From: a virus
Lineage: Duplodnaviria; Caudoviricetes
Strand: one strand, 5' to 3'
IMG/VR virus record: IMGVR_UViG_3300048821_000030
Span: 1-55,558 of that record
DNA: 55,558 nucleotides
How positions within the stretch are numbered: the stretch's first letter is position 1; each line of letters starts with the position of its first letter. Shown here in pieces: positions 643 to 54,968 of this stretch. The translations under genes and the position numbers were made by a program. The notes below the pieces were generated by a model, which worked only from the letters and a program-made list of their open reading frames with translations, made no database searches and was not told where the DNA came from.

Positions 643-1403
643 GCTGCGGATTCCAAATTTTGGAGTGAAGCCGCAAGTTCGAGAATGGACTCTTCGTTCA
701 AGATAACCACCTGCGAGAGTATTTCGTCGGAAGACAACTCCGATTCGATCAGTTCCTTGATCTTCTTGCAGCGTTGGACTGCCGTGGTGATTACGGTAAT
801 CAAAGATGGCGTTCCGGTTTTCTCGGCCACGAGCAGTTCAAGCGTTCTGCTCTCATCCCCCTCACAGCCGAATTCCTTGGATATTTCCAATAGGCCGGCG
901 TCGACTACCTTCTTCCTCGACCGTGGCATCTTCACGCTAAATGAGACGATCTTCTCCCGACCGTTCGACGGCTTCTCTTTGCCGTTCATCTCTTCATCGA
1001 TTACAGCTTTGAACGTGTCGGTGGAATCGGTTGCCGCCCGCCGCATCCAGTATTCTGTAAGCCGCTTCGATTCGGGCAAGTCCATTAGGGCTTCGGCGTT
1101 GGTCAATTTTTGGGAGCAAAATAATTTCTCTTCGACGCCGGGGAATGCCTCCGCAATTCTCATTACGTTAAAGAATGTGCTCTGCTTCACCCCAGAGGCT
1201 TCCTGGGCCTCTTTCTTGCTGGCGTAGCCAAGAATTCCCCAAAGCCCCTCTCTCTCCAAAGCCGCCGCGTGATACCCGATCCTCAAAGAGTTCGTCGACA
1301 CCAGCGGTCCTGACTGCTGGATCGCTTTCCAATGGCTTAAAGCCTCTTTCTTTCGGCTTGCCGCCTCTGCTTCTAGTTCGGGCATTGCTAAAATGGTCGC
1401 CAT
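639..1403 (-). CDS. Hypothetical protein, possibly DNA-binding
   Basis: 254-aa ORF with GAGG SD, overlapping the HNH start; helical N-terminal region. Confidence 0.5.
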   Translation of the reverse strand: MATILAMPELEAEAASRKKEALSHWKAIQQSGPLVSTNSLRIGYHAAALEREGLWGILGYASKKEAQEASGVKQSTFFNVMRIAEAFPGVEEKLFCSQKLTNAEALMDLPESKRLTEYWMRRAATDSTDTFKAVIDEEMNGKEKPSNGREKIVSFSVKMPRSRKKVVDAGLLEISKEFGCEGDESRTLELLVAEKTGTPSLITVITTAVQRCKKIKELIESELSSDEILSQVVILNEESILELAASLQNLESAA

Positions 1404-1415
1404 GATTTTCCTCTC

Positions 1416-2792
1416 CTAAATGATTTGCCTCTGCGGGTAAGTGAATCTGAGATGGTCCCTGTCAAAGTAACAGGTGATCTTGCCGCGCTTGCCTTCCCTC
1501 TGCTTGGCAATTTTTATCTCCACATCCAAGAGGTCGCCTCGTTCTCGCTTCTCCGGGTCTTCAATGCTAATCATCAGCATGTTCTGTGCGGCGTGGGAGA
1601 TTACCGACCCTCCGAAGTTTGAGTCTGTAGTCCTGCCCTTTTTCTTCATGAAACCATCGGCCTTGCTGTACTGGCTCAAAACTACCAAATGGATAGTAGG
1701 CTCCTGCTTGGGGATGTCTCTGAGCATGTAGATCGTATTTGCGAATTGCTCTGTTCCGCGCAGCCCAGGCATCCCTTGAAGAAGTTGGACATAATCTATC
1801 ACGAAGAGGCGGATCTTAAACTTCCTCGCCATCATGCGGATTCTGGACCGGAGCTTATCAACCCGCAACGGGCTTGTGTCGTCAATTCGAATCGGAAGCC
1901 GAGCAAGTTCCTCGGATACCTTTTTCATCTCGGGGATGTGCGTGTGAAGATTCATTAGTCGCGGATCGCGGATGTGATCTGCCGTCAGAATATCGCTCAT
2001 GGCCGCATAGTACCGCTGGGCAACTTTCTCTTTGGACATTTCCATCGAGAACCATGCACAAGGGATACCCTCTCTTGCGTTCGCCAAAGTCATCTGCACC
2101 GCTGCGGCCGTTTTGCCTCCCGAATTCTCACCGCTGATAATTGTGAACTCCCCACTGAATGCGCCGTGCGTGAACTCGTCCAAACCGGCCAACCCCCAGG
2201 TCATCTCCAGTGCTGTGCGCTCATTTGAAATGACGCGGCTTTTGTTGATTCTCTCCTCTACTGCCGGGATGCAGGCACCGATCTCTACCGAGTGGCTTGT
2301 CCCTTCCGCTTCCTCATCTCCCAATTGGTCTTGGATTGCTGATCGAACCTGATCTGCGGTTTCTGACTGATCCTGAGCCCTCGCCAGTCCAGCATTGAAT
2401 ATCCCCATCAGCCTCCGCAGGCGTGCCTTATTTTGGACTATTCGAACATGCTCCTCGATGTGGATGTTTCTGTAAATGCCTTCACTGAGGCTGAGGATGT
2501 ATGCAAATCCGCCCACATTGTCGAGCCACTTTCGCTTGCGCAACTCCTCGGCAAGCGTCATGTCGTCTACATGGAGAACCCCTTCGACCATTCCAAAAAG
2601 GATCTCATTGATGCAGGTAAAGATTTTTCGATTAGAATCCAAATAAAAGTCTTCAGATTTTATGTCTAACGTGTCGTCAAAAAAGGCTTCATTGTCTGTA
2701 ATGATTTTGCCGAGAATAACCCTCTCGGCATCTGCATTCGATGGGAGGGGTGATTCAATCCCGTAATCTCTTGGTTCTGCTTTTTGGCTCAC
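1416..2792 (-). CDS. dnaB: Replicative DNA helicase, DnaB family
   Basis: N-terminal PSNADAERVILG, EDFY; Walker A GENSGGKT; FSMEM; IDYVQL; LSQ; IAKQREG. Confidence 0.95.
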   Translation of the reverse strand: MSQKAEPRDYGIESPLPSNADAERVILGKIITDNEAFFDDTLDIKSEDFYLDSNRKIFTCINEILFGMVEGVLHVDDMTLAEELRKRKWLDNVGGFAYILSLSEGIYRNIHIEEHVRIVQNKARLRRLMGIFNAGLARAQDQSETADQVRSAIQDQLGDEEAEGTSHSVEIGACIPAVEERINKSRVISNERTALEMTWGLAGLDEFTHGAFSGEFTIISGENSGGKTAAAVQMTLANAREGIPCAWFSMEMSKEKVAQRYYAAMSDILTADHIRDPRLMNLHTHIPEMKKVSEELARLPIRIDDTSPLRVDKLRSRIRMMARKFKIRLFVIDYVQLLQGMPGLRGTEQFANTIYMLRDIPKQEPTIHLVVLSQYSKADGFMKKKGRTTDSNFGGSVISHAAQNMLMISIEDPEKRERGDLLDVEIKIAKQREGKRGKITCYFDRDHLRFTYPQRQII

Positions 2793-3070
2793 GATAGATC
2801 GCTCAGTTCTATAATTTCAGCCGGCCAGGGGAACCGCTTTCCCTCTTTCAAATAGTTCTTCAATCCCCGCTCCAGTTCCTTTTCGTCAAGACCATCCAAC
2901 CCCTCAACAAAGATGCCTATCAACTCTTCGTCGACGACGCGGTTCCTGTCGATGGCTGCGTACTTGTAGAGATATTCCCCAATCAAAGCCGTTCGCTGCT
3001 GGCTAGGCGTTAGCGACTGCGGCTGCGACTGCTTCACGATTTCGGTCCCTGATGCTAGCCGCTTCCCCAT
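2789..3070 (-). CDS. Putative helicase loader (lambda P/G39P-like)
   Basis: Lies between initiator and DnaB; C-terminal KRFPWPAEI motif; SD GGAGG before ATG at 3070. Confidence 0.5.
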   Translation of the reverse strand: MGKRLASGTEIVKQSQPQSLTPSQQRTALIGEYLYKYAAIDRNRVVDEELIGIFVEGLDGLDEKELERGLKNYLKEGKRFPWPAEIIELSDLS

Positions 3071-3629
3071 GCTTTCCTCCTCCATTGACCATCGGCTTTC
3101 CGTACCTGTCCAGCGGAGCCGCCGAATACTCTGCCAGTTTGTCCACCCAAGCATACAACCCTTGAGCATGATTCACTTCGCTCTTGCCACGGTTGTTAAG
3201 AGCCTTCCGCCACATCTCCTGAGTCCAATCCTTGTGTATGCGGAGAAACCTGTTCACAGCCATTCCGTCCATCGCCATCATCGTGAACATGGTTCCCGGA
3301 TTGGCCCACTCGAAGTATTTCTTCAGGTCGTCGATAAAGGCTATACGGCGTTCCGTTGCCGAGTCCAAATTTTGGAGTATCACTCCATCCCCAGACTTCA
3401 CCACCCCGCAGCGCCACTTCGTACTCTTGGGAACCTTTGCAACTAACTCAGGAACCGCTACAGAGACCTCCTTGATCCCGTCCAGCATATTCCCCGTCTT
3501 GCAGCGCACAAGACCAGCCAAAGCCGCTGTGGTGGCTTCCGTGCCGTCTGCAATCTTCACGGCTATGTACGCCAAGACGCCATTAGACGACAGTTGCTCG
3601 ATGATCGATGTGTCGATTGTCAGTTCCAT
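3003..3629 (-). CDS. Putative replication initiator
   Basis: Position upstream of loader and DnaB; N-terminal wHTH-like segment; start re-called at MELTID. Confidence 0.45.
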   Translation of the reverse strand: MELTIDTSIIEQLSSNGVLAYIAVKIADGTEATTAALAGLVRCKTGNMLDGIKEVSVAVPELVAKVPKSTKWRCGVVKSGDGVILQNLDSATERRIAFIDDLKKYFEWANPGTMFTMMAMDGMAVNRFLRIHKDWTQEMWRKALNNRGKSEVNHAQGLYAWVDKLAEYSAAPLDRYGKPMVNGGGKHGEAASIRDRNREAVAAAVANA

Positions 3630-3782
3630 GAATTCCCTTTCTCCGGCCCAATCGGAGGGTGGGAGAGTGATTGGGGCCACTCTCCCACTAGGAGGGCGCA
3701 ACTCGCAGGTTCGCTCTGCGGTCACTTCCCAGGCACCAGCCCGAGCACCTACAGACTAGCACAAAACTGCCAACAGCCGCGA

Positions 3783-4603: not shown

Positions 4604-5157
4604 CCCTTCGCCATCCTTTTGATTCCGAAGTCGCGCAGTTTGATTTTTGCCATGCGTCCGTCTAGGTGATGAAACACGATACCCTCAATGTCCCTGCCCG
4701 TCATCCAATCCAGCAGTTCTTCAAACGTGCGCGGCGCATCATCGTAGACATCAGTTTGCCCATGCGAGACAAGTTCGTGCGCTTCGTAGTGCTCCGGGTT
4801 GCCCTGTACCTTCGGCCCAACCAATTCATAAGTCCCGTCCGGTGGAGTTCCGAGCTTTAGAGCTTCACGGAACCACTTGTCTTCGGGACCATCTCCGACA
4901 GGAACCCACCCTACAGATTTCTTCGTTTCTTCGTCATGGCCAGCAAGTTCAAAACCGACCGGAACGGAATCTCCTTCCCGCAGTTCCCGCCGCCTGTAGA
5001 GAAGACGATCACGGACCATCGCACAGGCTCCGTCAATCTTCCGAGTCGCCACGCCCTCTCCAGCAGCGACCCACTCACAACCCGCATGAATCTGATTCAG
5101 AACACGCGACCTGTCCCCATTCCAGTCTCGTTCAAACATCGTGGGTATCTTATTCAT
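4600..5157 (-). CDS. DUF5565-like nucleotidyltransferase (RNA ligase-like)
   Basis: KIPTMF start, motif I RKIDG, GTYELVGPKVQGNP, EGIVF, AKIK. Confidence 0.75.
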   Translation of the reverse strand: MNKIPTMFERDWNGDRSRVLNQIHAGCEWVAAGEGVATRKIDGACAMVRDRLLYRRRELREGDSVPVGFELAGHDEETKKSVGWVPVGDGPEDKWFREALKLGTPPDGTYELVGPKVQGNPEHYEAHELVSHGQTDVYDDAPRTFEELLDWMTGRDIEGIVFHHLDGRMAKIKLRDFGIKRMAKG

Positions 5158-5510
5158 TCCGCTCCAATCTCCACCAGCACCAGCGGGTTGTCCGTAGACT
5201 TCACCCTGACAGTCTTTCCATTCACTTCCAGCACCAACGGCCTGCGGTTTCCAGTGTCGTCAAAATGCCACCCAAACAACTCGTCCACCTTCAAATCAAA
5301 GTACCGTGCGATCTGAAAAGCCAACTCCAGCGAAGGTATAGCCCGGTGCTTCAAAACCGCTTCCGCATGGTTCTTCGATATTTCAAAAATCTCCGCAAAC
5401 TCCCTGATGCTCAAGCCGTGAATCCTGGCTAGTTGGTACAAGAGCGGCATTGCCAGTGTTCCGTACACGGCTCGTTGCCGCTCGATAGTGCGCTGGAGAT
5501 TAGTCGGCAT
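5154..5510 (-). CDS. XRE/Cro-type HTH transcriptional regulator
   Basis: GLSIREFAEIFEIS...PSLELAFQIARYFDLKVDELF. Confidence 0.85.
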   Translation of the reverse strand: MPTNLQRTIERQRAVYGTLAMPLLYQLARIHGLSIREFAEIFEISKNHAEAVLKHRAIPSLELAFQIARYFDLKVDELFGWHFDDTGNRRPLVLEVNGKTVRVKSTDNPLVLVEIGAE

Positions 5511-6134: not shown

Positions 6135-6427
6135 TCTTCCCCCTCCCAATGATTCCAAATTTTGGAATGCGCGGGCTGTGGCAGTGTGACCTCACCGGCC
6201 AATTACGGAACTGTGTCCCAACCCGAACATCTCCACCCGGCCCCTTCTCCATCGGCTGCTGCCAAGTCTTTCGACTCCCCTCTCAGGTTCAAGGCGCTCG
6301 TCTTGGTCGGAACCTTACCGGATGGAAACTTAAAATGAGGGGTTATTTGTTCGAAGGATTTTACGCCCACGTACTACCAACCCCTCATGCCGCAGTGGGA
6401 TTCTCTCCCCTTTCGTACCTGCGGAAC

Positions 6428-8815: not shown

Positions 8816-9238
8816 TCCAAATTTTGGGGAACTATCCCTTTAACTCCCTGAACTGTTTTGGGCTCAACGCAACGATCCGTTGAGCACCGTTGATGGTTGC
8901 GATTACTCTTGCTGGAGACTCGCTGATGTCTATTACTTCCCCTTCTTCGATCCAGCCATGAAAACAAGGGTATTCAAGCGACGGCTCTACGGTAAGCAAA
9001 GCAAATTTATCGCCGGTACGTTTCCATTGTGGGTTTTGCCAAGGTGCGGCATCTTTGCTATCTACCGGATTCGAGAAATAGACAGCAAGACGGTGGGAGG
9101 GTCCACACTTCGGGCAATCAAGAATAAGCCCTTCGCCACTGTTCGGCCTCAGCAGCCCACACCACTTCGGATTTAGATCAAGCAAGTGAGTCATTTTTTG
9201 CTCCACGGGAGTTAAAGGGATAGTTCCCAAATTTTGGA
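8816..9238. repeat. 32-33-bp inverted repeat pair (8816-8848 and 9207-9238) bracketing one gene
   Basis: 22-bp perfect core GGGAACTATCCCTTTAACTCCC at 8827-8848, reverse complement at 9207-9228; each arm ends in a TCCAAA-palindrome variant. Confidence 0.9.
8832..9194 (-). CDS. DUF6527-like Cys/His protein
   Basis: CPKC..H, W.R.G, LTVEPSL, CFHGWI..G.V; start re-called at MTHLLD. Confidence 0.55.
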   Translation of the reverse strand: MTHLLDLNPKWCGLLRPNSGEGLILDCPKCGPSHRLAVYFSNPVDSKDAAPWQNPQWKRTGDKFALLTVEPSLEYPCFHGWIEEGEVIDISESPARVIATINGAQRIVALSPKQFRELKG

Positions 9239-9337: not shown

Positions 9338-10759
9338 TCAATCAGGTAAGTAGTCAGCCCACGATTCCTCTCCAGTGCAGAGCTTTTCCATCCACTCGTA
9401 CTTCCCAACTTCAAGGTCGGAAAGATGCTGCTCTGCGCGGTCTGGATACATGGCCGCGAGTACCTTCTTGATGTTCTCTTCCGTGAAGCCGGTCGTCTTC
9501 TTGTTCTGGCTGGCAATGCTGTAGAGCCGCTGCGCCCGCCTCCTTCCGATTGTCCCCGGCTTCGTCGTCGTCGGCAAATTCGAGGCCGTTGTTACCTGCC
9601 CGTTCTTCTTCAAGTCCTCGATCACCGCTTGGCCCTCGGGTTGCTTCTCGCCAAACATTTCATCGGCCACAGCCGCTGCATCCGGCGCCAGCGTCTTCTC
9701 CTCAACCTTCGTGACCTCTCCCTCTTGAACTGGAGATAGTTCAATCAAAGCCGCACAGGACCAAAAATCACCCTTCTCGTTTTGTGCGCTCTTCAGTTTG
9801 TCAGTCCACTTGCGAACCGCACGGAACTTGATGAAGTTACCCGCTATCATGTCGCCGTCGATGTTCTTCTCATCCACGGCTATGATTAAGGGTTCTCCCT
9901 TGACTGTGATCCAAAGACTGCCGCTCTTGGCTTGCTTGGCGCTTTCGATGATGCCGGAGATTTCCTTCTCGTTAGTCGCGGCAGCGGTCCCACCAGTCGT
10001 TGAACCAGTCGTCGTCGCATTCCCCGAAACCGCCTGGGCCGAAGTCTTTGTGTCCGCCTCCTTCGCGGCCTTCTCGCTGGCACGGGTCGGCTGCTGGACC
10101 GGAGGCTTCGTTTCACGTCCACCACCGCCGCGATCAAAGTCCTCATGGCCGGTCAATTCCTCGGCTGGCGTCGGCTTGTACCCGGCGAGTACGACAAACC
10201 ATGAGAAAACACCCTTGAGAGCCTTCGCCTCCGCGCGTGTCTGCGCCATCGACCTAAGCTGAAAGAGAGGCTTGCTCTTAGTCCCCGCCGCTACCTTTTC
10301 CGCCTCGTAACCGCCCTTACCTTTACGCAGATTGGCGTTCCAAATCTTTTTTCCGTTGGCGTCGAGTTTGTCCTTCCACTCGTAAACCGTAACGTCTCCC
10401 CAATTTTCTTCTTCGTCTAAACACATCGACTCCGCGCGGCCAATCTCGTTCATCGTGTTCATGTCGATCACAACCGCAACGGCTTCGAATCCCCTCGTTG
10501 TGCCGCCGTTCCCATCAGGAAACTCAACATAGTGGGTTTCAATGCTTTTTGCTGTGCAGTTAAAGAAGCGACCCGCCGTACCCCAGTCCTCTCGCTCAAG
10601 GTATTGTTCATTGTTGAACACCACCTTGTTTTCTTTCATATCAAGGACGTTCTTCAACGCAACAGCGGCTTTCTTTGCCTGAGCTAATACCTCTTCCGGC
10701 TCACGCCACTGCGCAAGCGCCGATGATCCTTCGTAGTGCGTGATTGCCGTAGTGCTCAT
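9338..10759 (-). CDS. Putative single-strand annealing recombinase with long C-terminal extension
   Basis: SMAQTRA..KA and GY.PTPAEE motifs; located between exonucleases. Confidence 0.55.
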   Translation of the reverse strand: MSTTAITHYEGSSALAQWREPEEVLAQAKKAAVALKNVLDMKENKVVFNNEQYLEREDWGTAGRFFNCTAKSIETHYVEFPDGNGGTTRGFEAVAVVIDMNTMNEIGRAESMCLDEEENWGDVTVYEWKDKLDANGKKIWNANLRKGKGGYEAEKVAAGTKSKPLFQLRSMAQTRAEAKALKGVFSWFVVLAGYKPTPAEELTGHEDFDRGGGGRETKPPVQQPTRASEKAAKEADTKTSAQAVSGNATTTGSTTGGTAAATNEKEISGIIESAKQAKSGSLWITVKGEPLIIAVDEKNIDGDMIAGNFIKFRAVRKWTDKLKSAQNEKGDFWSCAALIELSPVQEGEVTKVEEKTLAPDAAAVADEMFGEKQPEGQAVIEDLKKNGQVTTASNLPTTTKPGTIGRRRAQRLYSIASQNKKTTGFTEENIKKVLAAMYPDRAEQHLSDLEVGKYEWMEKLCTGEESWADYLPD

Positions 10760-10770
10760 CTCACCCTCCA

Positions 10771-11478
10771 TTACTCCGGTGCTCCTGCCATGAATTCCGA
10801 TTTGAACTGGTAGCCATCTCTCTCTGCTTCCCAGTCTGATTGCTTTTGCCCCTTCCACCAGATTTTCTTATCGGGGTTCCAGCGGAAGTTGAAGTCTTTT
10901 GCTTTCTGATTGTCGTTGTACGTTACCAACGCCTGAACGTATATGACAGGCTCTTTAGACCGCGCAATGATGGCGTCGAGGTCGTAGTTGGAAGCAATCT
11001 TCAGCATCGTCAAAACATCAAATAAAGACCTGTGCTTCCACGGAGAAACGAATCCGTGCTCAGCCGCCAAGTGTGTAAGGTTCCGCGTCTTGACGCCCTC
11101 TGGGTACTTAATGTCTTCCATGCTACAAAGCCACGGAACCTGCCACTCTCCTTGGCCCGTCCTTACCCTTGCGGCTTCGATGAAGCCTCGATCAAACTTG
11201 GCATTGTGGGCCATCGTGTAATCGGCCAGCATACGAATCGTCCACAACCGCTCACACGCCTCTTCTTCCAGAATGCCGTACTTGAGAATCATCTCCGGTG
11301 TGATGCCGGTCAACTTCACTATTTCTTCGGGGATTTCAATTTCGTGGTCTACCAGTATTGAAATCATTTGAACTGGAATTTTCGTATCCCAATCCCATAA
11401 CACCGCCGCGATCTCGATGATCCTGTCCGGCTCAGGTTCAAGCCCTGTAGTCTCCGTGTCCAAACCCAATACGAGCAT
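10771..11478 (-). CDS. DnaQ-like DEDDh 3'-5' exonuclease
   Basis: LDTETTG, AHNAKFD, HRSLFD. Confidence 0.92.
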   Translation of the reverse strand: MLVLGLDTETTGLEPEPDRIIEIAAVLWDWDTKIPVQMISILVDHEIEIPEEIVKLTGITPEMILKYGILEEEACERLWTIRMLADYTMAHNAKFDRGFIEAARVRTGQGEWQVPWLCSMEDIKYPEGVKTRNLTHLAAEHGFVSPWKHRSLFDVLTMLKIASNYDLDAIIARSKEPVIYVQALVTYNDNQKAKDFNFRWNPDKKIWWKGQKQSDWEAERDGYQFKSEFMAGAPE

Positions 11479-11513
11479 TTACCCCTCCCTCGTCCACTCC
11501 AAAATTTGGAGTC

Positions 11514-11831
11514 CTAACCTTTTGGTTCCTTCAGAGATTCCCACTGACCGAGCGTAGACCGAAGTCTCTGAAGTTCATCCTTAGAACTCTCAACCTTTTT
11601 CTTCGCCCGCCTGACCGCTTCAGCCTTAGCCTCCACAAAGGACGAAAAGAAGTCGTCGCGGCTTTCTCTGCGCTCTCTTGTCCTGTGCGACCGATCAAAC
11701 CTTATTTCATCTTCCAAATAAGTGACGAAGTGATCTGTAACGGCCACAACCCTGACTGGTTCAATCTCCACAGAGTACCGCTTTATTCTCCACCACACCC
11801 CAATAGGTTCGCGCACCACTTTCGACTCCAT
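11514..11831 (-). CDS. Hypothetical phage protein
   Basis: 105-aa ORF coupled to upstream gene. Confidence 0.6.
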   Translation of the reverse strand: MESKVVREPIGVWWRIKRYSVEIEPVRVVAVTDHFVTYLEDEIRFDRSHRTRERRESRDDFFSSFVEAKAEAVRRAKKKVESSKDELQRLRSTLGQWESLKEPKG

Positions 11832-12220
11832 CAGCCCTCCCTCAACTTCCTGACCACTTCAATTTCCGCTTCCGTGAGAACCGCTTTGCCGTTCAAGTAA
11901 AAACGACCATGAAGCAATTCCTTCCGCAGTTTCTTCAGTTCCTCAACTTCAAAATCAGTCAATACGGCTTTCTCGTTCAACCGGACAAACTTGTTCGTTC
12001 CGTACAGGTCAACCAAAGCCACAATCCGAGCAAGCGAGGGAATCAATTTTTCTTGCTCCCAACGGGATACCGACGATTGGTTGCAGCCATTCAGCTTTTC
12101 AGCCACATTCAAGAGCGACAGTTTCGACGCGATCCTTGCAGATGTAAGAGCCTTGCCATTCACCGTAAGCAGTTTCGTTTCTTTGTACATAACGAAGATA
12201 GTGTTGCACGTTAATTCCAT
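11831..12220 (-). CDS. XRE HTH regulator with duplicated C-terminal motif
   Basis: LSLLNVAEKL.GCNQSSVSRWE...PS; start uncertain. Confidence 0.75.
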   Translation of the reverse strand: MELTCNTIFVMYKETKLLTVNGKALTSARIASKLSLLNVAEKLNGCNQSSVSRWEQEKLIPSLARIVALVDLYGTNKFVRLNEKAVLTDFEVEELKKLRKELLHGRFYLNGKAVLTEAEIEVVRKLREG

Positions 12221-12318
12221 ACCGTCAAATAGCACCATGCTGCGGCTTTGCCCATTCCAAATTTTGGAATCGCGTTTCTGGTTGCAAGTCGATGTAGGCA
12301 CAATAGATAATGATTTTC

Positions 12319-12573
12319 ATGAAGACTCAGAAGCCCAAAACCGTGAAGAAGCAGACCATCAAGAAGGCCGTCAAGAAGACCCCATCGAAGCCAAAGGTGA
12401 AGCTGTCGAAGGCCGACCCCTCGTACTACGCCAAAATCGGCGCGATCAGTGCGGCCAAAAGAAAGATCTCTAAAGAGTTCTTTTCTGCCATGGCGGTCAA
12501 AAGTCATGCGGCTGGTTCCCGCCCAGACAGATACAAAGGGGGACGCAAGCCTAAGCCCACAGAAGAGGCATAG
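12319..12573 (+). CDS. Small Lys-rich basic protein (KGG/stress-protein-like)
   Basis: YYAKIG, FFSAMA, KGGRK; TTGCAA-18-GATAAT promoter upstream. Confidence 0.6.
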   Translation: MKTQKPKTVKKQTIKKAVKKTPSKPKVKLSKADPSYYAKIGAISAAKRKISKEFFSAMAVKSHAAGSRPDRYKGGRKPKPTEEA

Positions 12574-13609
12574 TCGGGGAGCCTAGCCTCTCCGGTCGAT
12601 ACCCTGCGGCTTTCCACGCCTCCCACGGAACTCCATCCGGCCACTGCTTGCTAGGCTTGTCGTAGGCCCCGATTACCCACCGCTGAAACCCCACCAACTC
12701 CTGAGTCCTCACGAACGGCATCGGGTACGGCCTTGCGCCGAACTCCCGCAGCCGCTTTCTACGATGGTCCCAGGTTGCGAAGGCTTTGTCGTAGGGCCAG
12801 TATCCACACAGGATGTAGACCATGATGTGATCCGGCTTCACACCGTACTTGACGAGTCGTTCTAACCCAGCAATGAGTATGTCTTCATCTGGCAGGTTGT
12901 CCCAGGCTGTATAGATGCGCTTGACCGTCATTCCATCGTCGCGGTAATCAACTGAGGCAATCGCTTCCGCTGCTTCGTCGGTAAGGAATCGCGCATTGAT
13001 ACCCTGATTGAAACTGACCTTGAATCCGCCTTCCCGTATTTCTGCTATCCGCTGCCGCCACTCCGGTTGGCCGAAGAAATCATTATCGAGCAAGTGGAGG
13101 TGTCTCGGATACGGGTCGCCGCGCCACACCTGATAGACATTCTGAATCCCCTTCAATTCCGGTTCTTTGCTTGGGACCGCGCAGAACCCGCATTTCTTGC
13201 GGCATCCACGCTGCGTAAAGCCAAGAGACGCCTGATAGGTTGGGAACCATGAGTAATCTAGGCACTCTGCGGTTTCGCCGATGTCGATGCCTAACTTCTC
13301 TATCGTCGTCGGCTTTGAGGCGATTACCGGAGACAGTGGGACGAGTTCCCCTTTTCTGGCCGGGTCAATGCCTGTTCCGCCAAGATGCGCTTGCGGGTAC
13401 CTGCGCTTGAATCTTTCAGCCAGCGGAATCGTCTTCCGAAAGATAGCAGAACCGTACACTAGATCCGGTTCGCGGCCAAACATGGTCACTTCAAAGGCCG
13501 CTCCGAACCGATATTCAATCTCATCTCCGCGTAAACGATGATGCGTTGCGATCCTCATCAAAGCAAGGTTCGGCAACTTTCCGTCAAGTTGGCAGAGCAT
13601 TACGCGCAT
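12551..13609 (-). CDS. Radical SAM protein
   Basis: TQRGCRKKCGFC (CxxxCxxC), PNLALM, LLDNDFF, FNQG; start re-called at MRVMLC. Confidence 0.88.
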   Translation of the reverse strand: MRVMLCQLDGKLPNLALMRIATHHRLRGDEIEYRFGAAFEVTMFGREPDLVYGSAIFRKTIPLAERFKRRYPQAHLGGTGIDPARKGELVPLSPVIASKPTTIEKLGIDIGETAECLDYSWFPTYQASLGFTQRGCRKKCGFCAVPSKEPELKGIQNVYQVWRGDPYPRHLHLLDNDFFGQPEWRQRIAEIREGGFKVSFNQGINARFLTDEAAEAIASVDYRDDGMTVKRIYTAWDNLPDEDILIAGLERLVKYGVKPDHIMVYILCGYWPYDKAFATWDHRRKRLREFGARPYPMPFVRTQELVGFQRWVIGAYDKPSKQWPDGVPWEAWKAAGYRPERLGSPTMPLLWA

Positions 13610-13617
13610 ATTCTCCG

Positions 13618-13627
13618 AGTATATACT
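13618..13627. promoter_or_regulatory. Bidirectional -10 element AGTATATACT
   Basis: Palindrome supplies TATACT on both strands, 6 nt before ATG 13634 (+) and 8 nt before ATG 13609 (-). Confidence 0.6.
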
Positions 13628-13633
13628 GCGAAC

Positions 13634-14272
13634 ATGTCCGATATTCCTCAACGCTGGCTCAGTCTCACTGGCATAAGCGCCACTCTCAACTTGACCGGCA
13701 CTCAGATTAAGCTCCTCCACAAACAGCGATACCTCGTGCGGATCGGGAAGCGCCCCCAGGACTACCGATACCTCGACCCCACCCCCGAGTACGCCGAACG
13801 CCTACGGCTTGCGGCGGTCATGCTCTCAAAAAACTCCCAGGTCAACATCGACCTCCCCATGACCTTCCTGCTCACAGCTAGGGAGGTTGCGGAGATTATG
13901 GGCTGGAGTTTGCGCTATGCCAGAGACTTCCTCGAAGACACTAAAGCACCTTGCTGGAAGGCGAAAAACAGGGCTAAACTATTTTCCGTATCAACCGTGA
14001 GAGACCTTCTGTTCAAAAGACAGGGCAGGCACCTACACAAACAAAAGGCTCCGTTCCTGTTGCCCGAATTAGTAGCCTTTGCCAAGCGGTTTATCGACTC
14101 CGAGGCCGCTATCGTCCCAACCGACGAGCAATTCAAAGCCGATGCGGAACTCCAAAAAAAGATGGAATTAGTCATGCGACAGAGCAGCCCCGGCAGGGAG
14201 GTCATGCTGGCTGATCTTTTGGAGAAACTGGAGTTGGCGAAACAGGTAGTCCAAACTTTGGAATCTAAATGA
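13634..14272 (+). CDS. HTH DNA-binding protein (Xis/HTH_17-like)
   Basis: LLTAREVAEIMGWS; leaderless start MSDIPQ removes the overlap with the radical SAM gene. Confidence 0.6.
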   Translation: MSDIPQRWLSLTGISATLNLTGTQIKLLHKQRYLVRIGKRPQDYRYLDPTPEYAERLRLAAVMLSKNSQVNIDLPMTFLLTAREVAEIMGWSLRYARDFLEDTKAPCWKAKNRAKLFSVSTVRDLLFKRQGRHLHKQKAPFLLPELVAFAKRFIDSEAAIVPTDEQFKADAELQKKMELVMRQSSPGREVMLADLLEKLELAKQVVQTLESK

Positions 14273-14410
14273 TGCAGACAGGATTGGGTACCTGCCGACC
14301 GTTGGCCCGTTTATGAAGCGCCTCTAAATGCTTCCCGGTACGCCTAATTGTTCCGCGCGAACTCACGCCGCATCATGTAGGCAGTATACACCTAATTCCA
14401 AATTTTGGAA

Positions 14411-14605
14411 TCAGCGTGAGGCTTTGCGGGTCTTCGCCTTGCGCTTCCCGGCCTTCTTCACTGCGGCGTTGGCCCCACGAATCGCTCGCGCATCGTCCCC
14501 GGTTCGCTCAAGGATGGAATTTGCGACCTTACTCCACTGGCGCTTGCGCTTCGGAGACTTGGCGCGGTGTGTTTTGTTGTGCGCGTCTTTCGCTGTCCAT
14601 GGCAT
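14411..14605 (-). CDS. Small basic phage protein
   Basis: MPWT..DA..K...RQW..VAN..L...GDDARAIR.ANAAV. Confidence 0.65.
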   Translation of the reverse strand: MPWTAKDAHNKTHRAKSPKRKRQWSKVANSILERTGDDARAIRGANAAVKKAGKRKAKTRKASR

Positions 14606-14611: not shown

Positions 14612-15064
14612 TTATCTCCGTGATGCTTTTTCCCACTCGATCATGCCTTCGAGCCAAAGTTTGCGGCTTTCGGAATGCAACTTGGCAGCATTAGTGCAGA
14701 TTGCGCGTCCCTCTGCGCTTAGTTTGCCAGACTTGGAAAATAATTCACGAATGCTGCGGCTAATTTTAACCAACCCAGCCTCTATCTGAGTAACCCCAGA
14801 GACTACCTTGTTGCCTTCTGCGATGAATTTTCCGCCATCCTCTTGACGCTCTTCGGCTCGATAAGATTCTTCAAAGAGCCTATCCGCTTCGGCGCGGAGA
14901 CCATCAGACGTGTCACTAATCCTGTCCGACTCCTCTGATAACTTATCGGCTTCGTCGAAGAGTTTATCGGCTTCGTCGAAGAGTTTATCGGCTTCGTCGA
15001 AGAGACTGTTCCCTTCAACAAAAATCCCGATGCTGTCTTCAAATTTCTTCTGGGCAGCGTCCAT
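14612..15064 (-). CDS. Heptad-repeat coiled-coil protein
   Basis: (LFDEADK)x3 plus degenerate heptads; own TATACT -10 and AAGGAG SD. Confidence 0.65.
   Translation of the reverse strand: MDAAQKKFEDSIGIFVEGNSLFDEADKLFDEADKLFDEADKLSEESDRISDTSDGLRAEADRLFEESYRAEERQEDGGKFIAEGNKVVSGVTQIEAGLVKISRSIRELFSKSGKLSAEGRAICTNAAKLHSESRKLWLEGMIEWEKASRR
14943..15004. repeat. 21-bp tandem repeat x3
   Basis: TTATCGGCTTCGTCGAAGAGT repeated three times. Confidence 0.95.
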
Positions 15065-28811: not shown

Positions 28812-28835
28812 GGCTCACTCCAAATTTTGGAATCC

Positions 28836-30317: not shown

Positions 30318-30353
30318 GGATTGATGATACCTTATGTTCGCAGTTTATGGTAA

Positions 30354-30386: not shown

Positions 30387-30415
30387 CTGTCTACCTACCG
30401 GGGATGCCCGATCCA

Positions 30416-37331: not shown

Positions 37332-37355
37332 TGACTACCTTTCCAAATTTTGGAA

Positions 37356-37802: not shown

Positions 37803-37824
37803 TCTTACTCCAAAATTTGGAATC

Positions 37825-38307
37825 CTACAACTGTTTCAGGCTGATCTTGCCGCCGTTCTTGTTGATGAGTCCAGCCTTCCACAACTGACTTACAACTCCA
37901 GCCACGCTCCCCTGAGCGCACTTTGCATGAAGCCGCAACTGTGTTTGAGATAGTTCTCCGTGGAGCATAAGAGCGTCGATGAATCGAGCAGGAATACCCG
38001 GCATTTTCCTCTTCCAATCTTCCCACACTGCGGCTTTGCGAGGATCAAGTCCCGAGGCAGATGCCATCTCTCCCTGCACACCTGTAGCCTCAATCTCTCC
38101 AAAGATCATTTGCAAGCCACTGTAGACAGGCGTGAGAGCTTCACGTAAACGAGAAACCCCACGCTCCATCGTTGCGGTTTTCTGCCGCTCCTTGCGTAGA
38201 TCGTCCTGCGCGTCCTCAAGTTGATTCCGTAGATCATCAATCTCTTGCTGAAGTTGATGGACTCTCTTAAGCGGGTCCGGTAGCGAACTAAGAATGGACA
38301 GACTCAC
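37825..38307 (-). CDS. Coiled-coil plus C-terminal wHTH protein
   Basis: GELSQTQL......GSV...VSQL.KAGLI.K; GGAGG SD before GTG 38307. Confidence 0.6.
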   Translation of the reverse strand: MSLSILSSLPDPLKRVHQLQQEIDDLRNQLEDAQDDLRKERQKTATMERGVSRLREALTPVYSGLQMIFGEIEATGVQGEMASASGLDPRKAAVWEDWKRKMPGIPARFIDALMLHGELSQTQLRLHAKCAQGSVAGVVSQLWKAGLINKNGGKISLKQL

Positions 38308-38902
38308 TGGAACCTCCTGTAAGTTTTGCTCTGAATGCGCCAAGGGTTTGCGTGAGGATTGCAGGTGCCCCAACTCGTTCAAGGCCGCGAATATAAGAGA
38401 ATGCCAGCCGCAGAGCGCAAAGATTCAACCGCGCCTCCGTGTACTGGTCAATCGCCATCACATACTCGTGTCGATGATCGTGCGTTCCAAGAATCCATGC
38501 CTTCGCCTGTTGACGCCACTCGGACAGCTTCTTAAACAATGCAGGATCGCCGCCACCTGGGGAGTCGGGGTGGGCCTTCCTTGCGCGGTCGCGGAATGCC
38601 TCGTCAATCTCAGCCAGCGTCGGCGCAGGGCTTTCGAGTCCCAACCCCTGCTGCCAAGAGAAGTCCTCCTTCTTCATTGACCACCATACCGACACGCCAG
38701 GGTCGAGACGATCACCCTCAGAGCGGCAGACGAGGATTGACGTTGCTTCCATCTTGTCAAGTTCGCTGGCAAGCATATCTCGGTATTGACCCCACGACTT
38801 CTTCCATGAGTGTTGCGGTTTGCGCTCCTTGATGCGCGTTCGTTCGCATCCATCCGGCCACTTCAACTTACATTCCTCAATCAGATCGACTTTCTTAGGC
38901 AT
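38288..38902 (-). CDS. J-domain (DnaJ-like) protein
   Basis: EIDEAFRDRARKAHPD..GG....FKKL. Confidence 0.75.
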   Translation of the reverse strand: MPKKVDLIEECKLKWPDGCERTRIKERKPQHSWKKSWGQYRDMLASELDKMEATSILVCRSEGDRLDPGVSVWWSMKKEDFSWQQGLGLESPAPTLAEIDEAFRDRARKAHPDSPGGGDPALFKKLSEWRQQAKAWILGTHDHRHEYVMAIDQYTEARLNLCALRLAFSYIRGLERVGAPAILTQTLGAFRAKLTGGSSESVHS

Positions 38903-40633: not shown

Positions 40634-40833
40634 TGGTTCTCCAAATTTTGGAGTCGGCTTGCCGCGTCCTTCCAAGCCTCTTCATCGGTCCAGTGGATGC
40701 CGCTTAGGAACACGTAGCCAACCAATGCAGGCGGGTCCGACTGCTCCCGTGGACGGCGTATCTCGACACGCGACCTGCGCCAATATAAATACGCTGTCGG
40801 GTATTTACTAAAGACCTTTTCCTGATATGTCAT
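40630..40833 (-). CDS. Hypothetical protein
   Basis: 67 aa, GAGG SD, EEAWKDAA motif. Confidence 0.55.
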   Translation of the reverse strand: MTYQEKVFSKYPTAYLYWRRSRVEIRRPREQSDPPALVGYVFLSGIHWTDEEAWKDAASRLQNLENQ

Positions 40834-45195: not shown

Positions 45196-45220
45196 TTGAC
45201 TTGGATTCCAAAATTTGGAA

Positions 45221-45748
45221 TCAGATGATGATTGCCGCCGCACCCATCTTGTCATTTAGCGTCCCGGCAACCCACATATCACTTGTCCTGATGGCGTTCC
45301 ATTGTTCGACACCGAAATTGTCAGACCCACTAACTAAAATCTCTTGAAAAGCACTGCCTCCACCTACATTCGTAACAGTGCTGTCAGAGCCTTCCCAGAT
45401 GCTCCCTGAATTATTCGTGATGTTGTTCATCCTGAGAACAGCGCAAGCAATACTCAGAACGATCTGCGTCCCACTCGGCCAGTTCGATACCGGAGCATCG
45501 CCTTCAGATATGCAAGAGAGAACGTTGGTGCTGGTATTGACTGCATTGACCATCAAGCAGTTCGTCGGACTCGATCCACCAAAACCGAGAACGATGCGGT
45601 CGCCTATTTGGTACTGGGAGGCTTTCGCAACCGGCACGAAGTAGAATCCGTTCGGCTGCTTCAAGTTCTTGAAAGCCGCAGTCAGCTTGTCTCCGAAGAG
45701 AGGCTGTGCGGCTCCGGTGATAGTTTGTAGTCCCCAACTTCTGATCAT
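45221..45748 (-). CDS. Putative virion protein
   Basis: 175 aa, beta-rich, inside structural module. Confidence 0.5.
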   Translation of the reverse strand: MIRSWGLQTITGAAQPLFGDKLTAAFKNLKQPNGFYFVPVAKASQYQIGDRIVLGFGGSSPTNCLMVNAVNTSTNVLSCISEGDAPVSNWPSGTQIVLSIACAVLRMNNITNNSGSIWEGSDSTVTNVGGGSAFQEILVSGSDNFGVEQWNAIRTSDMWVAGTLNDKMGAAAIII

Positions 45749-52424: not shown

Positions 52425-54287
52425 TTATTTATGGTGTGCCGCTCCCGGCTTTATGCCAGCAGCAGCCGCCGCAAGCGCCATCTGCTTTGCCTCTTCCGCA
52501 AGCTCTTCATCGTTCTCTTTCTGGTCTATATTCCAATCTGGAACAGCGATGGCAAAAAACTTCTTGCGGCTCAAATCTCGATTCTTTCTCAGTCCGGCCG
52601 CAATCGAAATACGGTCCTGGCGCTGGAATCCGAACAACGATCCCTGCTCGCATTCAAAGCCGAACTTACGGACGTGCGATTCAGAGTTCACACCTTCAGG
52701 TATCAAACTTCCCGGCCTATCGTCGATGTCCTCTTTCGTTAGTCCATCCATACCGAGAGTTTCAACGCGCCTTGCAGCGTCATAGAACTGTAGTGCTGTT
52801 CCGGTCCACAATTCTCCAACTTCATTCACGCCCGTCTCAACGTTTGCGGCTTTGAACCTGATTGGTGTTGTCTTCGAGAACTGAATCTTTTCGAGTGTGT
52901 CTCCACCTGGAACCTGCTTCTTCCCGAGAGCTTGATTAACAGCATCGGTCCCTGAGTTCTCCTTGATCGTCCTTCTGAGCATCTCAAGCACTGGCAGTGG
53001 GTAGTTTCCAATATTTGGAGGAGCCTGCCACGTCGGACCTGTAATGGCATTCGAGTTGAAAGAGATTTTCAGGTTTGGCTTGTTGGCGTCTATAGCCTTC
53101 AATGCGTCTGGGTGAATAGCCGATTTTGGAGCCATCAAAGCCGGTGCTAGTGCTCTCTTCACAGCCAACAACAATCCCGACATAATCTGGTTCATGATGT
53201 CGTTTGTGTCCATCCACGGCTTCAATACACTCAAAGCGTACTGCTGCCACGGGACCGAGTGAAGACCCATCAAAACGAATGGCCTCTTGCGGTGGTAGTA
53301 GGGGTTGGGCTCATCGTATAGGGTCACTTTGTTCGAACGAATCACAAGCCTCCCACGAGGATAGAGCTTCTCTTCTGGTTTAACCCAGTATCCCCACGGT
53401 GCGCTGTTTGGGCTCTTTCCATCCCCAGGCCCCATCCATAATGTGTTGCGGCTTTCATTGATCGAATCGTCGTTCATCCAGAACTCGACTACTTCTGCCT
53501 CTGGATACTTGCTTCTCGCGCTCGACGCCTCAGACCCTCCCATAATACGTTTCCAGCCGGAATTCAACTGCTCAAACAATTGCGGCATGACCGTTGGAGG
53601 AACCTGTGGCTCAACACCGTAGGTGCTGTAATCTTCCTGCGGACGAACGTGCTTGCCCATATTCGGATAGGCTCTCTTGATCCAGTCGAGCGTCTCCCGG
53701 CGCCGGTAGATCACCATCTCGTCTTCTTGAAGATCATGAGGTCTTGTAGGCCCAAGCCGCATCAGGGCCTTGGGGTTCAAATGCTTCATGGAGATGTCGG
53801 CGTCACACGCATCCCCGCTCGTCCCTCTGGCAAACCGATTCCAGTAGAGGAGGACCGGCGAAGTCGTGAACATTCCGAACATTGTCCAGAACGCAAGCGT
53901 TTGATTGAATTTGTCCCTGCGAGCCCAACCCTTGACCATCGCATTCAGAATCTTTGCGGTCTTCGAATAATCACCAGCAAACCCAACTTCCGAGATATGG
54001 AAGATCGGCCTTACATCGGTGAGCAGTCCTATCGTCTCCCAAAAATTCGAGAGAACCTCGTTCGACACCGGCTTTGGCCTGTAATTGGGGAGTTTCTCGC
54101 GCCATTGGATTCCGGCCAGATAATCGATAGCCTCATCCATTGCCTTCAGTTCTGGAGTGGTCTTTTGGCGCGCAATTCCCTCGCTGAAACAGCCGTCAAG
54201 GAAATCGGCCATCTTGGAATAATATTCCAACAGATAGCGGTCTTCTACTTCAGGAGTCTTAGGAATGGGAGCTTGAAAGTCTGCCAT
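52425..54287 (-). CDS. Portal protein (P22-like)
   Basis: 620 aa; YL.G.QW, L.D.RP, LYD..NPY....PF, Q/M-rich helices; upstream of scaffold and MCP. Confidence 0.8.
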   Translation of the reverse strand: MADFQAPIPKTPEVEDRYLLEYYSKMADFLDGCFSEGIARQKTTPELKAMDEAIDYLAGIQWREKLPNYRPKPVSNEVLSNFWETIGLLTDVRPIFHISEVGFAGDYSKTAKILNAMVKGWARRDKFNQTLAFWTMFGMFTTSPVLLYWNRFARGTSGDACDADISMKHLNPKALMRLGPTRPHDLQEDEMVIYRRRETLDWIKRAYPNMGKHVRPQEDYSTYGVEPQVPPTVMPQLFEQLNSGWKRIMGGSEASSARSKYPEAEVVEFWMNDDSINESRNTLWMGPGDGKSPNSAPWGYWVKPEEKLYPRGRLVIRSNKVTLYDEPNPYYHRKRPFVLMGLHSVPWQQYALSVLKPWMDTNDIMNQIMSGLLLAVKRALAPALMAPKSAIHPDALKAIDANKPNLKISFNSNAITGPTWQAPPNIGNYPLPVLEMLRRTIKENSGTDAVNQALGKKQVPGGDTLEKIQFSKTTPIRFKAANVETGVNEVGELWTGTALQFYDAARRVETLGMDGLTKEDIDDRPGSLIPEGVNSESHVRKFGFECEQGSLFGFQRQDRISIAAGLRKNRDLSRKKFFAIAVPDWNIDQKENDEELAEEAKQMALAAAAAGIKPGAAHHK

Positions 54288-54331
54288 GTCGTTTTAATCG
54301 TATCTCTCAACAGTTCAGTTTGCTACGAAAA

Positions 54332-54937
54332 TCAGAGCCAGTTGTTCTCAACCACATGCTTGATTACGCGCTCTGCCCACAACTTTGCGGTCTCCCCCTG
54401 GTCGCGGGCCTTCTCGACTACGGCACCGTAAAGACTTCCCAAGTTGATTAGTACGGCCCCCGGATTGCGCCCCTCGTAAATCGCAACGTCCTTCTTCGCT
54501 TCATCTGCAATCAACTTGGCGGTTTCAAGTTCCATCGAGAGGTTGTAGACCAACCCAAACAACTCAGATGCGCTTTCAGGCCGCTTTCCCAATAGTTCCT
54601 TCATCCGTTGGAGATCCGCTTCGGGAACGATCACTACCTCCCCCTCAGCCAGCATTTGAATCAATCCAGAGACCGTTGCGTTTCCCCTGTCTCCAAACTT
54701 AGCTTCAAACTTTGTCTTCGCGGTCGGCGGTACAACCACTTCCATCTTGACGTGGTTCGGCTGGACCATCACTGGCGGCTTAGACTCTTCGTACTTCACT
54801 TGCGGGTTCAATCCAAGGAACGCTGCGGTGTCGTTCCATGAATGGCTACTGTTGGCCGAGCACACTAGCTTGCGATGTTCGGCGTTGACCTGTGCTCCGC
54901 ATTGCGGGCAGGCATAACGGGTTTTTACGATTGGCAC
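54332..54937 (-). CDS. Zinc-ribbon hypothetical protein
   Basis: CPQCG...C....H; GAGGAGG SD before GTG 54937. Confidence 0.55.
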   Translation of the reverse strand: MPIVKTRYACPQCGAQVNAEHRKLVCSANSSHSWNDTAAFLGLNPQVKYEESKPPVMVQPNHVKMEVVVPPTAKTKFEAKFGDRGNATVSGLIQMLAEGEVVIVPEADLQRMKELLGKRPESASELFGLVYNLSMELETAKLIADEAKKDVAIYEGRNPGAVLINLGSLYGAVVEKARDQGETAKLWAERVIKHVVENNWL

Positions 54938-54968
54938 TTTCTTTCCCTCCTCATTCCAAATTTTAGAA

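Follow-up and report, generated by a model that had tools for sequence, protein, structure and literature searches.

A dispersed TCCAAA-N-TTTGGA palindrome network in an uncultivated peat phage lineage and its candidate DNA-binding proteins

The palindrome and the phage that carries it

The stretch of DNA analysed here, referred to as the window and as G000 in comparisons, is the full 55,558-bp record of the virus IMGVR_UViG_3300048821_000030, and the element in question is the palindrome TCCAAANTTTGGA (TCCAAA-N-TTTGGA), copies of which are dispersed over it. Almost all genes of the window lie on the minus strand in a single long co-directional array. An initial annotation of the sequence had listed 14 exact copies with an A or T at the centre and two with a C, and these 16 exact sites were recovered at the same positions; dinucleotide-preserving shuffles of the window gave a mean of 0.01 exact copies and a maximum of 1. 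When two or fewer mismatches were allowed, 23 sites were found, compared with 3.05 on average and at most 7 in the shuffled sequences. Five one-mismatch copies (8816, 9226, 28476, 53007 and 54955) are credible, and these correspond to five of the six near matches in the annotation. The core of the site is 13 bp long, or 17 bp with its flanks (A-Y-TCCAAA-W-TTTGGA-R-T), and the flanks prolong the symmetry into the perfect 19-bp palindrome that had been noted at 45204-45222. Related records of 79-97 kb contain 17-20 exact sites each, and all 12 core bases are invariant over 93 sites from 11 records. The palindrome network is real. In the literature, the motif strings among the matches listed occurred in primer or eukaryotic contexts, and none of these matches concerned phage or bacterial regulation.

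The annotation had described the network as genome-wide, a description limited by the window itself, which makes up only about 57% of the genome (CheckV completeness 57%; estimated full size ~90-97 kb). The window aligns collinearly with G001, a relative of 88.6 kb, over positions 13-78 kb, and with G002, a complete relative of 97.2 kb with direct terminal repeats, over positions 21-81 kb. A megablast search with 20 kb of the window gave no match among isolated phages, and the capsid protein shares no more than 25-28% identity with those of Mx8, Mx9 and BUCT555. The phage is an uncultivated peat siphophage that has no close isolated relative. Its DNA is present in many peat metagenome runs, and the peat RNA libraries of four studies contain near-identical contigs. 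The sole hint of a host comes from two short contigs in Acidobacteriota metagenome-assembled genomes, which encode capsid homologues and do not carry the motif; the suggested link to this phylum is weak.

Placement, conservation and spacing of the sites

The anatomy of the sites was analysed in a set of 66 non-redundant sites from six records, oriented by the direction of transcription. The oriented consensus reads stop codon, (G)A-Y, TCCAAA-W-TTTGGA, R-T, G-rich Shine-Dalgarno (SD) sequence and ATG, and a site typically begins 1-7 nt past the stop codon and ends 6-20 nt before the next start. An SD and the start of a long open reading frame (ORF) lay within 45 nt downstream of 39/66 sites (random mean 14.8, maximum 25), the stop of a long ORF lay within 45 nt upstream of 38/66 (random mean 18.0, maximum 29), and both were present around 27/66 (random mean 4.3, maximum 10). 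The stop ended 1 nt before the core in 15 of these 38 cases, its final A being the A at position -8 of the site, and the start lay 6-8 nt past the core in 14 of the 39, with the GGAG of the site as the SD. Among the exact sites of the window, 10 are located at gene junctions and six in long ORFs (3364, 14250, 17312, 22898, 26639 and 32335), and the earlier observation that the GGAG end lies at SD distance, 6-8 nt, before the start at 28819, 37809 and 40640 was borne out. The tight arrangement of stop, site and SD is read as economy, in which the site occupies the smallest gap and has bases in common with both translation signals.

Not all sites follow this arrangement. About a quarter to a third of them (17-23 of 66) are in coding sequence, and a G at +7 was present in 17 of 43 intergenic sites compared with 1 of 23 in-gene sites. 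A second class, in the order stop, site and terminator-like hairpin, comprises 7 of the 93 sites at approximately three independent junctions; just 5' of such a hairpin there were 7 sites, and just 3' of one there were 3. No conserved base was found at positions -22 to -9 of the oriented sites, and the centre base gave no clear sign of orientation (A 35, T 18, G 8 and C 5 on the A-rich strand). Scans of the window for sigma-70 promoters and terminators remained at the shuffle level and revealed no link to the sites. The spacing of the exact sites was more even than random in G000 (coefficient of variation, CV, 0.56; P 0.015) and borderline in G002 (CV 0.67, P 0.054), for which the inclusion of one-mismatch sites gave a CV of 0.55 and a P of 0.002.

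The composition of the flanks indicates how the two halves of a site relate to each other. The base pairs at -7/+7 were T/A in 32 sites, T/G in 14, C/A in 10 and C/G in 4, with no covariation (Fisher odds ratio, OR, 0.91; p = 1.0), and at the ±9 positions like paired with like (G/G 16, C/C 10), G/C and C/G being found twice each. The half-sites vary independently.

A scan of IMG/VR for the 17-mer yielded many loci that were found to be relatives, a set that is ascertained by the motif; ten related records had 2-20 copies each, and the reversed-pattern control had 0 in all 10. A motif-independent set of relatives was collected by capsid homology and then scored for exact sites. At a capsid identity of at least 66%, 26 of 36 loci carried the motif (67 sites in 482 kb), and the siteless loci were mostly short; at 53-60% identity, the motif was found in 1 of 29 loci (1 site in 410 kb). 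Because its presence drops sharply between these two ranges, the motif defines a clade. The 11 main-clade records (capsid identity of at least 66% where measured) have TCCAAA-N-TTTGGA only, with no copy in which zero, two or three bases separate the arms, at 2-20 copies per record. Other palindromes are present in sister clades. G221 (capsid identity 60%) has 12 copies of TCCAAATTTGGA, CG-TCCAAA-TTTGGA-CG without a centre base, and no copy with one; G222 and G223 (59%) have 9-14 copies of GTCCA-N4-TGGAC; and the complete G225 (56%) has 11 copies of TCCCA-N2-TGGGA. Each of these palindromes is exclusive to its own genome, and such strict spacing seems to fit the expectation for a co-evolving, phage-encoded, rigid dimer better than that for a hairpin.

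Numerous junction sites recur at orthologous junctions although the flanking proteins are only 45-75% identical. Within the 10.5-kb gene, sites of different genomes line up in one column where the protein around them is poorly conserved, and they do so in two reading frames, as for 17312 (LQNLE) and for G001 34796 and G002 60636 (PKIG/PKFG). Since the column is kept while the surrounding stretches vary and the frames differ, the conservation indicates selection at the nucleotide rather than the peptide level. Among 201 Acidobacteriota genomes, the motif is at chance level, with a match in 27 of them and approximately 33 sites in total, including one in G056; the matches that were fetched were unrelated low-GC loci. 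G152, which has four sites, proved to be unrelated low-GC DNA.

The individual sites and the genes of the window that are candidates for encoding the binder are listed in Table 1. In addition, a site follows the gene corresponding to 9338-10858 in G001 (23749) and G002 (71142).

Table 1. Sites and candidate binder genes in the window (HTH, helix-turn-helix; numbers after G001-G004 and G211 are positions in those related records)
Position (strand)	Feature	Local context	Counterparts and remarks
652-664	exact site, junction	9 nt before ATG (642) of endonuclease VII-like gene 256-642; within last codons of 639-1403	orthologous junction also with site: G001 13502, G002 80942
3364-3376	exact site, in gene	in ORF 3003-3725	orthologous in-gene sites G002 77939 (exact), G001 16819 (one mismatch)
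5154-5507 (-)	candidate binder, 118-residue XRE-family HTH protein	Pfam HTH_3; profile match CylR2, E 3e-5	
6154-6166	exact site, intergenic	19 nt before start 6134; separate SD GGGAGGGGG downstream	
8816-8828	one-mismatch site	outer end of left arm of inverted repeat; 3 nt past stop of 8832-9194	single junction site in relatives, gene 8832-9194 missing there
9226-9238	one-mismatch site	outer end of right arm of same inverted repeat as 8816; 31 nt before start 9194	
11498-11510	exact site, intergenic	3 nt past stop of 11514-11831; 19 nt before ATG 11478	
11831-12301 (-)	candidate binder, second XRE-family HTH protein	Pfam HTH_31, HTH_3	
12256-12268	exact site	between XRE gene 11831-12301 (-) and divergent 12310-12573 (+)	
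13538-14272 (+)	candidate binder, only conserved opposite-strand gene	no Pfam match	
14250-14262	exact site, C centre	last codons of + strand gene 13538-14272	G211 homologue ends in LQILES, site at G211 63261 inside that ORF; absent in G001, G002
14397-14409	exact site, intergenic	1 nt past TGA of 14411-14605	
17312-17324	exact site, in gene	in 3527-residue gene (LQNLE)	same alignment column as G002 64976; stretch poorly conserved
22898-22910	exact site, in gene	in 3527-residue gene (LQILE)	same alignment column as G002 58586
26639-26651	exact site, C centre, in gene	in gene 25684-27252	G002 54452 in homologous gene, same centre base
28476-28488	one-mismatch site, junction	order TAA-T-site; ATG 15 nt downstream	with 28819 flanks gene 28530-28811, which is absent from G001, G002
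28819-28831	exact site, junction	4 nt past stop of 28836-29375; GTG (28811) 7 nt downstream; GGAG as SD	bridged by RNA-library contig X16 record 10
32335-32347	exact site, in gene	in RNA-ligase-like gene 31457-32560	gene absent from G001, G002
37342-37354	exact site, junction	1 nt past TAA of 37356-37802; 10 nt before GTG 37331	bridged by RNA-library contig X18 record 29
37809-37821	exact site, junction	3 nt past TAG of 37825-38382; ATG (37802) 6 nt downstream; GGAG as SD	junction kept in G002 (35121), G001 (58090), G003 (3586); bridged by RNA-library contig X15 record 6
40640-40652	exact site	GGAG precedes ATGATG	same site in G003 (6354)
45207-45219	exact site, order stop-site-terminator	core of perfect 19-bp palindrome; 1 nt past TGA of 45221-45748; terminator-like hairpin from ~10 nt downstream	junction with site in G001 (66012), G002 (30610), G003 (11976), G004 (41126)
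53007-53019	one-mismatch copy, membership uncertain	in portal gene	variant TCCAAANATTGGA in same context at G003 19776, G001 75796; may reflect just portal protein conservation
54955-54967	one-mismatch site, junction	1 nt past TAA of 54969-55403; 17 nt before GTG 54937	exact in G001 (78378), G003 (21724), G004 (28760); same variant in G002 (20799)

Candidate binders and readings of the network

Because the half-sites are independent, the spacing is strict and clade-specific, and the in-gene sites are conserved as DNA, an operator network for a dimer, one of the options raised by the initial annotation, is the best-supported class of explanation. It is probable, as far as can be judged from sequence, that the sites form a cis-element network on double-stranded DNA that is bound by a phage-encoded symmetric dimer and controls transcription of the gene array. 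The phage would then need approximately one site per 3-5 kb, placed where it is cheapest, which would be the smallest gap that separates a stop codon from a ribosome-binding site, with the last A of the stop and the GGAG of the SD doubling as bases of the site. Where no gap is available, as in the 10.5-kb gene, the site would be placed within the coding sequence. The bound protein would most likely control the passage or the initiation of transcription along the single co-directional array, either as an orientation-independent roadblock or as a clamp of the ParB/KorB type that loads at the sites and then slides. It is conceivable, though we would not favour it, that in a phage with neither integrase nor ParA a ParB/KorB-type clamp loads at ~20-25 parS-like sites over the 90-kb genome, so that sliding clamps would coat or gate the whole chromosome, and that the sister clades have re-tuned the clamp and all of its sites together, for instance by loss of the central base pair from each of them.

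Four proteins are candidates for the binder. Three of them are conserved proteins encoded in the window with actual or possible helix-turn-helix (HTH) domains, and it is possible, with some doubt, that one of these three is the protein in question. The XRE-family protein encoded at 5154-5507 shows 82-85% identity to its counterparts in G001 and G002, and G211 and G208 retain its recognition helix, ISK(N/T)HA; a scan with the single protein detected no loci, and an alignment-based scan detected G001 and G002 only. The second XRE-family protein has homologues in G001, G002, G211 and G208 with a conserved GCNxSxxSRWE. The product of 13538-14272 shares 64-65% identity with its counterparts in G001 and G002 and 39-45% with those in G211 and G208, and it appears by eye to contain HTH-like segments.

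The fourth candidate, a ParB-like protein of 275-286 amino acids, is encoded outside the window-equivalent region in G001/G004, G002 and G005, and we assign it the same tentative standing as the three window proteins taken together. A library profile search for this family returned 1,460 relatives, and of 71 aligned members, 56 match HTH_ParB, 38 match ParB_N and 24 match KorB. The AlphaFold2 model (predicted local distance difference test score, 92.2) matched ParB (7bnr, E 1.7e-8), KorB (8qa9, a KorB-KorA-DNA complex, 5e-8), Noc and Spo0J in Foldseek, with values ranging from 2e-8 to 9e-7; the modelled fold is that of ParB/KorB, in which a ParB/Srx domain at the N-terminus precedes an HTH of the ParB type. 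In G002 and G005, the ParB-like gene has a site immediately upstream. Among the three ParB-like proteins of motif-bearing phages, which are 47-49% identical overall, the helix motif K-A-x-R-x-x-K does not vary. In the homologue of G213, an unrelated phage, which is diverged to an equal degree, it has changed to R-A-x-K-x-x-Q, and the G213 genome has a 6-N1-6 palindrome of its own, TGACAG-S-CTGTCA (7 sites within one mismatch). The contig of G211 stops short of the region where the gene would be expected and gives no information either way. Binding by a protein outside these four candidates is improbable.

The initial annotation had also proposed a parS-like loading site for a ParB-like domain of the giant protein. 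A loading site is plausible in view of the separate ParB/KorB-fold protein in the relatives; the giant protein as its loader is not. This 3527-residue protein (15097-25680, minus strand) has weak helicase matches (ResIII, DEAD) and a weak ddrB-ParB match below the cut-off, and had no match among PDB sequences. It looks polyvalent and is possibly injected. The proposal of an N4-like virion RNA polymerase acting at hairpin promoters was rejected, with nothing found in its support.

Several observations weigh against an operator network of this kind or against particular binders. None of the three HTH candidates stands out, since the recognition helix is retained in each, and the exact site at 12256 beside an XRE gene has no exact counterpart in G001 or G002. 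The ParB-like gene is absent from the window stretch and was seen only in the records named above, and the protein itself falls below Pfam cut-offs. The CTP-binding box II motif of ParB proteins is GERRxRA; the aligned segment of the ParB-like protein reads G(Q/Y/E)CR(V/L)(E/T)A, in which the second arginine alone of the box is kept. No ParA-type ATPase (PF01656) that could act as its partner was matched in five related records including the complete G002, while control genomes matched in 14/14 cases. In the complete G225, which has a related-looking palindrome network, homologues of the ParB-like and XRE proteins, and of all four candidates, were not detectable. Two of five unrelated viral contigs without a ParB-like protein carry equally strong palindrome networks, and therefore the co-occurrence of the ParB-like gene and palindromes is not specific; these control contigs and G225 weaken the argument from co-variation. 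As for the sites, the spacing in G001 is not regular (CV 0.89), significant evenness being limited to G000 and G002, and G000, G001 and G002 each have 10-14 kb over the head genes without an exact site. The regular stop-site-SD geometry and the bias for G at +7 could point to a role at the level of RNA or translation.

An RNA-level element would be a transcribed hairpin or an RNA-bound repeat that gates the SD, couples translation, or stabilises or processes the polycistronic mRNA, and it would resemble the start-associated sequences of Cluster K mycobacteriophages. The associations with stops and with SD and start, all above the random maximum, the recurrent 1-nt and 6-8-nt distances with GGAG as the SD, the intergenic preference for G at +7 and the excess of sites 5' of terminator-like hairpins would all suit such an element, and for a hairpin the change from one centre base to none would merely alter the size of the loop. 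However, covariation at ±7 is absent, and 10/66 sites carry a C.A mismatch at these positions of the sense RNA. The 19-mers fold with a mean minimum free energy of just -4.5 kcal/mol, the same in sense and antisense, and the one-mismatch variants compatible with wobble pairing (5 in sense, 3 in antisense) show no sense-strand bias. No Rfam family other than a tRNA was matched. Furthermore, the conserved in-gene sites occur in two frames with no start codon after them, the sites before terminators have no downstream cistron, and each genome has one spacing variant exclusively, whereas a hairpin should tolerate mixed loops. Contigs from the RNA libraries bridge four sites, which speaks against obligatory cleavage and nothing more, and some of these contigs could come from carried-over DNA; these libraries consist of assembled contigs that hold no transcript ends, strand or levels, and their uncovered parts are not evidence. 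The hairpin controlling SD access that had been suggested earlier is thus disfavoured, and an RNA-level role is unlikely; it is retained at this level because the stop-site-SD geometry is so regular.

Two further readings concern DNA. A structure-forming signal, such as a cruciform or a hairpin of single-stranded DNA for replication priming, packaging or genome entry, would be recognised by its shape more than by its sequence. The A-tract at the centre (AAA-W-TTT) between G+C-richer arms, the dispersal of the sites with evener-than-random spacing in G000 and G002, and the expectation that a palindrome would be functional on either strand agree with such a signal, but the invariance of all 12 core bases points to sequence readout rather than shape, the stems are short, the G001 spacing is irregular and no enzyme candidate was identified; we regard this reading as quite improbable. 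Alternatively, the sites may be recombination linkers or mobile mini-elements, identical junction sequences that serve as crossover points for cassette shuffling among co-infecting relatives or that spread by themselves. The genes 8832-9194, 28530-28811 and 37356-37802 each lie between two sites where the relatives have one site and no gene, and sites were found at 36/171 breakpoint junctions compared with 9/117 conserved-adjacent junctions in four non-independent genome pairs (OR 1.4-7.6, p 0.049-0.72). To this extent the recombination site named in the initial annotation agrees indirectly with the data. However, a search for tyrosine integrases (PF00589) and serine recombinases or resolvases (PF00239) gave 0 matches in the five related records, including the complete G002, other transposase families not having been searched, and dedicated cassette recombination, together with prophage silencing of the stoperator type, is therefore without support. 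Sites are present at the same orthologous junctions beside proteins of 45-75% identity, the conserved in-gene sites are unaccounted for, breakpoints and sites may both favour loosely packed regions, and the breakpoint count rests on crude gene calls. The enrichment at breakpoints is likely a side effect of identical short junction sequences, and recombination as the function of the sites is very improbable. We infer that binding of a dimer to the DNA, with a consequent effect on transcription, would account for the sites best.

Comparison with described systems and neighbouring features

The closest described analogue of the putative operator network appears to be the 17-bp palindrome TGTTCGGNNNCCGAACA of Cluster O mycobacteriophages, of which Corndog has 34 unoriented copies with invariant arms and an A/T-rich centre (PMC4351075). 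About a third of these repeats lie in coding sequence, there is no promoter association and no integrase, and the authors predicted a dimeric DNA-binding protein (PMC4351075). The window phage is alike in its many dispersed palindromes (16 exact in 55.6 kb, 17-20 in each of the related records of 79-97 kb, and few one-mismatch copies), in the invariant arms and A/T-rich centre, in the mixture of intergenic and coding sites, and in having no integrase match; the centre-base counts and the shuffle-level promoter predictions likewise show neither orientation nor a fixed promoter link. The two differ in that sequence, host and lineage are unrelated and that the core is 7-3-7 in Cluster O and 6-1-6 here. 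The sites of the window phage are tied to stop and start codons, whereas the Cluster O authors deny such ties for theirs. Clade-specific spacing variants are a feature of the window lineage, and few of the Cluster O repeats are described at indel boundaries, compared with the modest breakpoint excess seen here.

A 6-1-6 core is also found in the KorB operator OB of plasmid RK2, as seen in a printed oligonucleotide, and KorB is a ParB-family, CTP-dependent sliding clamp that acts at a distance (PMC11790492). The KorB, ParB and Noc systems are similar to the present one in that a short palindrome is dispersed over a mobile genome; their sites are read by proteins with a ParB/Srx N-domain and an HTH, which is also the predicted fold of the protein in the relatives that has a site beside its gene. 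RK2 has about half as many OB sites as there are sites here, and consensus sequences are known for parS and for the Noc-binding site. In contrast to KorB, the protein of the window lineage has GxCR instead of the GERR box, no ParA-type partner was found, and the genome is that of a phage with terminal repeats rather than a plasmid; the sites are mostly between cistrons, whereas KorB operators are near promoters.

The stoperators of Cluster A mycobacteriophages are asymmetric 13-bp sites of temperate phages, oriented with transcription and bound by a monomeric phage repressor that stops elongation (PMC9283540, PMC4351075). Like them, the present sites are numerous, near-identical, 13 bp long and located in short intergenic gaps over early and late operons; unlike them, each is a perfect palindrome whose centre base is unoriented. 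No integrase or resolvase was found in the five related records, and XRE-type proteins and one antisense-oriented gene are present. The start-associated sequences (SAS) and extended SAS (ESAS) of Cluster K are asymmetric 13-bp repeats in a single orientation, with an SD, that stand a few bases before the starts of non-structural genes and are almost always linked to a start (PMC3203893). Like the present sites, they sometimes include the upstream stop, are missing from the host and are kept across subclusters (PMC3203893). The sites of the window lineage differ from these in being palindromic and in lying, for a quarter to a third of them, in coding sequence or before terminators; a start follows within 45 nt in 39/66, at 6-8 nt in 14, while 17-23 are in coding sequence and 7 precede terminators. 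The network is of a known yet unexplained kind, and what is new here is the placement with shared stop and SD bases, the exclusive spacing variants and the ParB-fold candidate for the binder.

Other palindromes were observed in phages beyond the clade. G213 (L162-L164) and G214 (L165-L169), complete phages whose one link to the lineage is the ParB-like gene, have dispersed 6-N1-6 palindromes; two of the seven sites of G213 are in its terminal repeat, and G214 has AATAAT-N-ATTATT at 13 sites within one mismatch. Two unrelated low-GC viral contigs, G218 (a contig of L066) and G219 (a contig of L053), also have high-copy palindromes; one has 28 copies of GTTTAA-N4-TTAAAC and overlapping TTAACG-CGTTAA, and the other has 22 copies of GTGCTC-N3-GAGCAC within one mismatch.

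Within the window, the near match at 30975 has two mismatches and is probably not a member of the network; it coincides with a conserved extended -10 promoter, TGGTACAAT, followed by the gene 30416-30940 (minus strand), and the G001 orthologue of the promoter, TGGTATAGT, differs at several motif positions. A two-mismatch copy at 19126 was rejected because it is at chance level. The bin 30335-31001 reached a contig depth of 170-640x in four peat RNA libraries compared with ~1-40 in most bins, depth being a poor measure of expression, and a sequence upstream of the orthologue of 30416-30940 in G001 resembles a tRNA by eye; the window has a tRNA-Met gene at 31341-31417 (minus strand). A second over-represented word, CTGCGGCTTT, has 10 copies compared with 0.25 expected, 9 of them on the plus strand. 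Its core, AAGCCGCAG, shows a sense bias in the window (12:1), in G001 (10:3) and in G002 (14:4) and hardly occurs in G213 and G214, codon-level causes being possible; the 12 sense-strand copies in the window (for example 4082, 4349, 12240, 28424, 33575 and 38028) are often near gene starts. An inverted repeat of 25-32 bp at 8816-8848/9207-9238 (arms 8824-8848 and 9207-9231, 96% complementary) encloses the gene 8832-9194, and its arms end outward in one-mismatch copies of the motif with an inner half of CCCAAA. The minus-strand ORFs 2789-3169 and 3003-3725 overlap by 167 nt, and their homologues in G001 overlap likewise, which may reflect either a frameshift or a true gene overlap. At 14943-15005, a 21-bp unit occurs three times in tandem and encodes a repeated LFDEADK peptide in the gene 14612-15064.

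Dispersed palindromes have been described in phages, as in Cluster O, but they have never been explained, and their presence in two of five unrelated viral contigs suggests that the phenomenon may be common and overlooked. The lineage described here provides a clean clade boundary, exclusive spacing variants in sister clades, in-gene sites in two frames and four concrete candidate binders, which together make the question of function testable by simple binding assays. If the clamp of the ParB type is true, it would extend CTP-switch clamps from the biology of plasmids and chromosomes to the control of a whole virus genome, and the sister clades would offer a natural series for studying the co-evolution of half-site spacing and protein.

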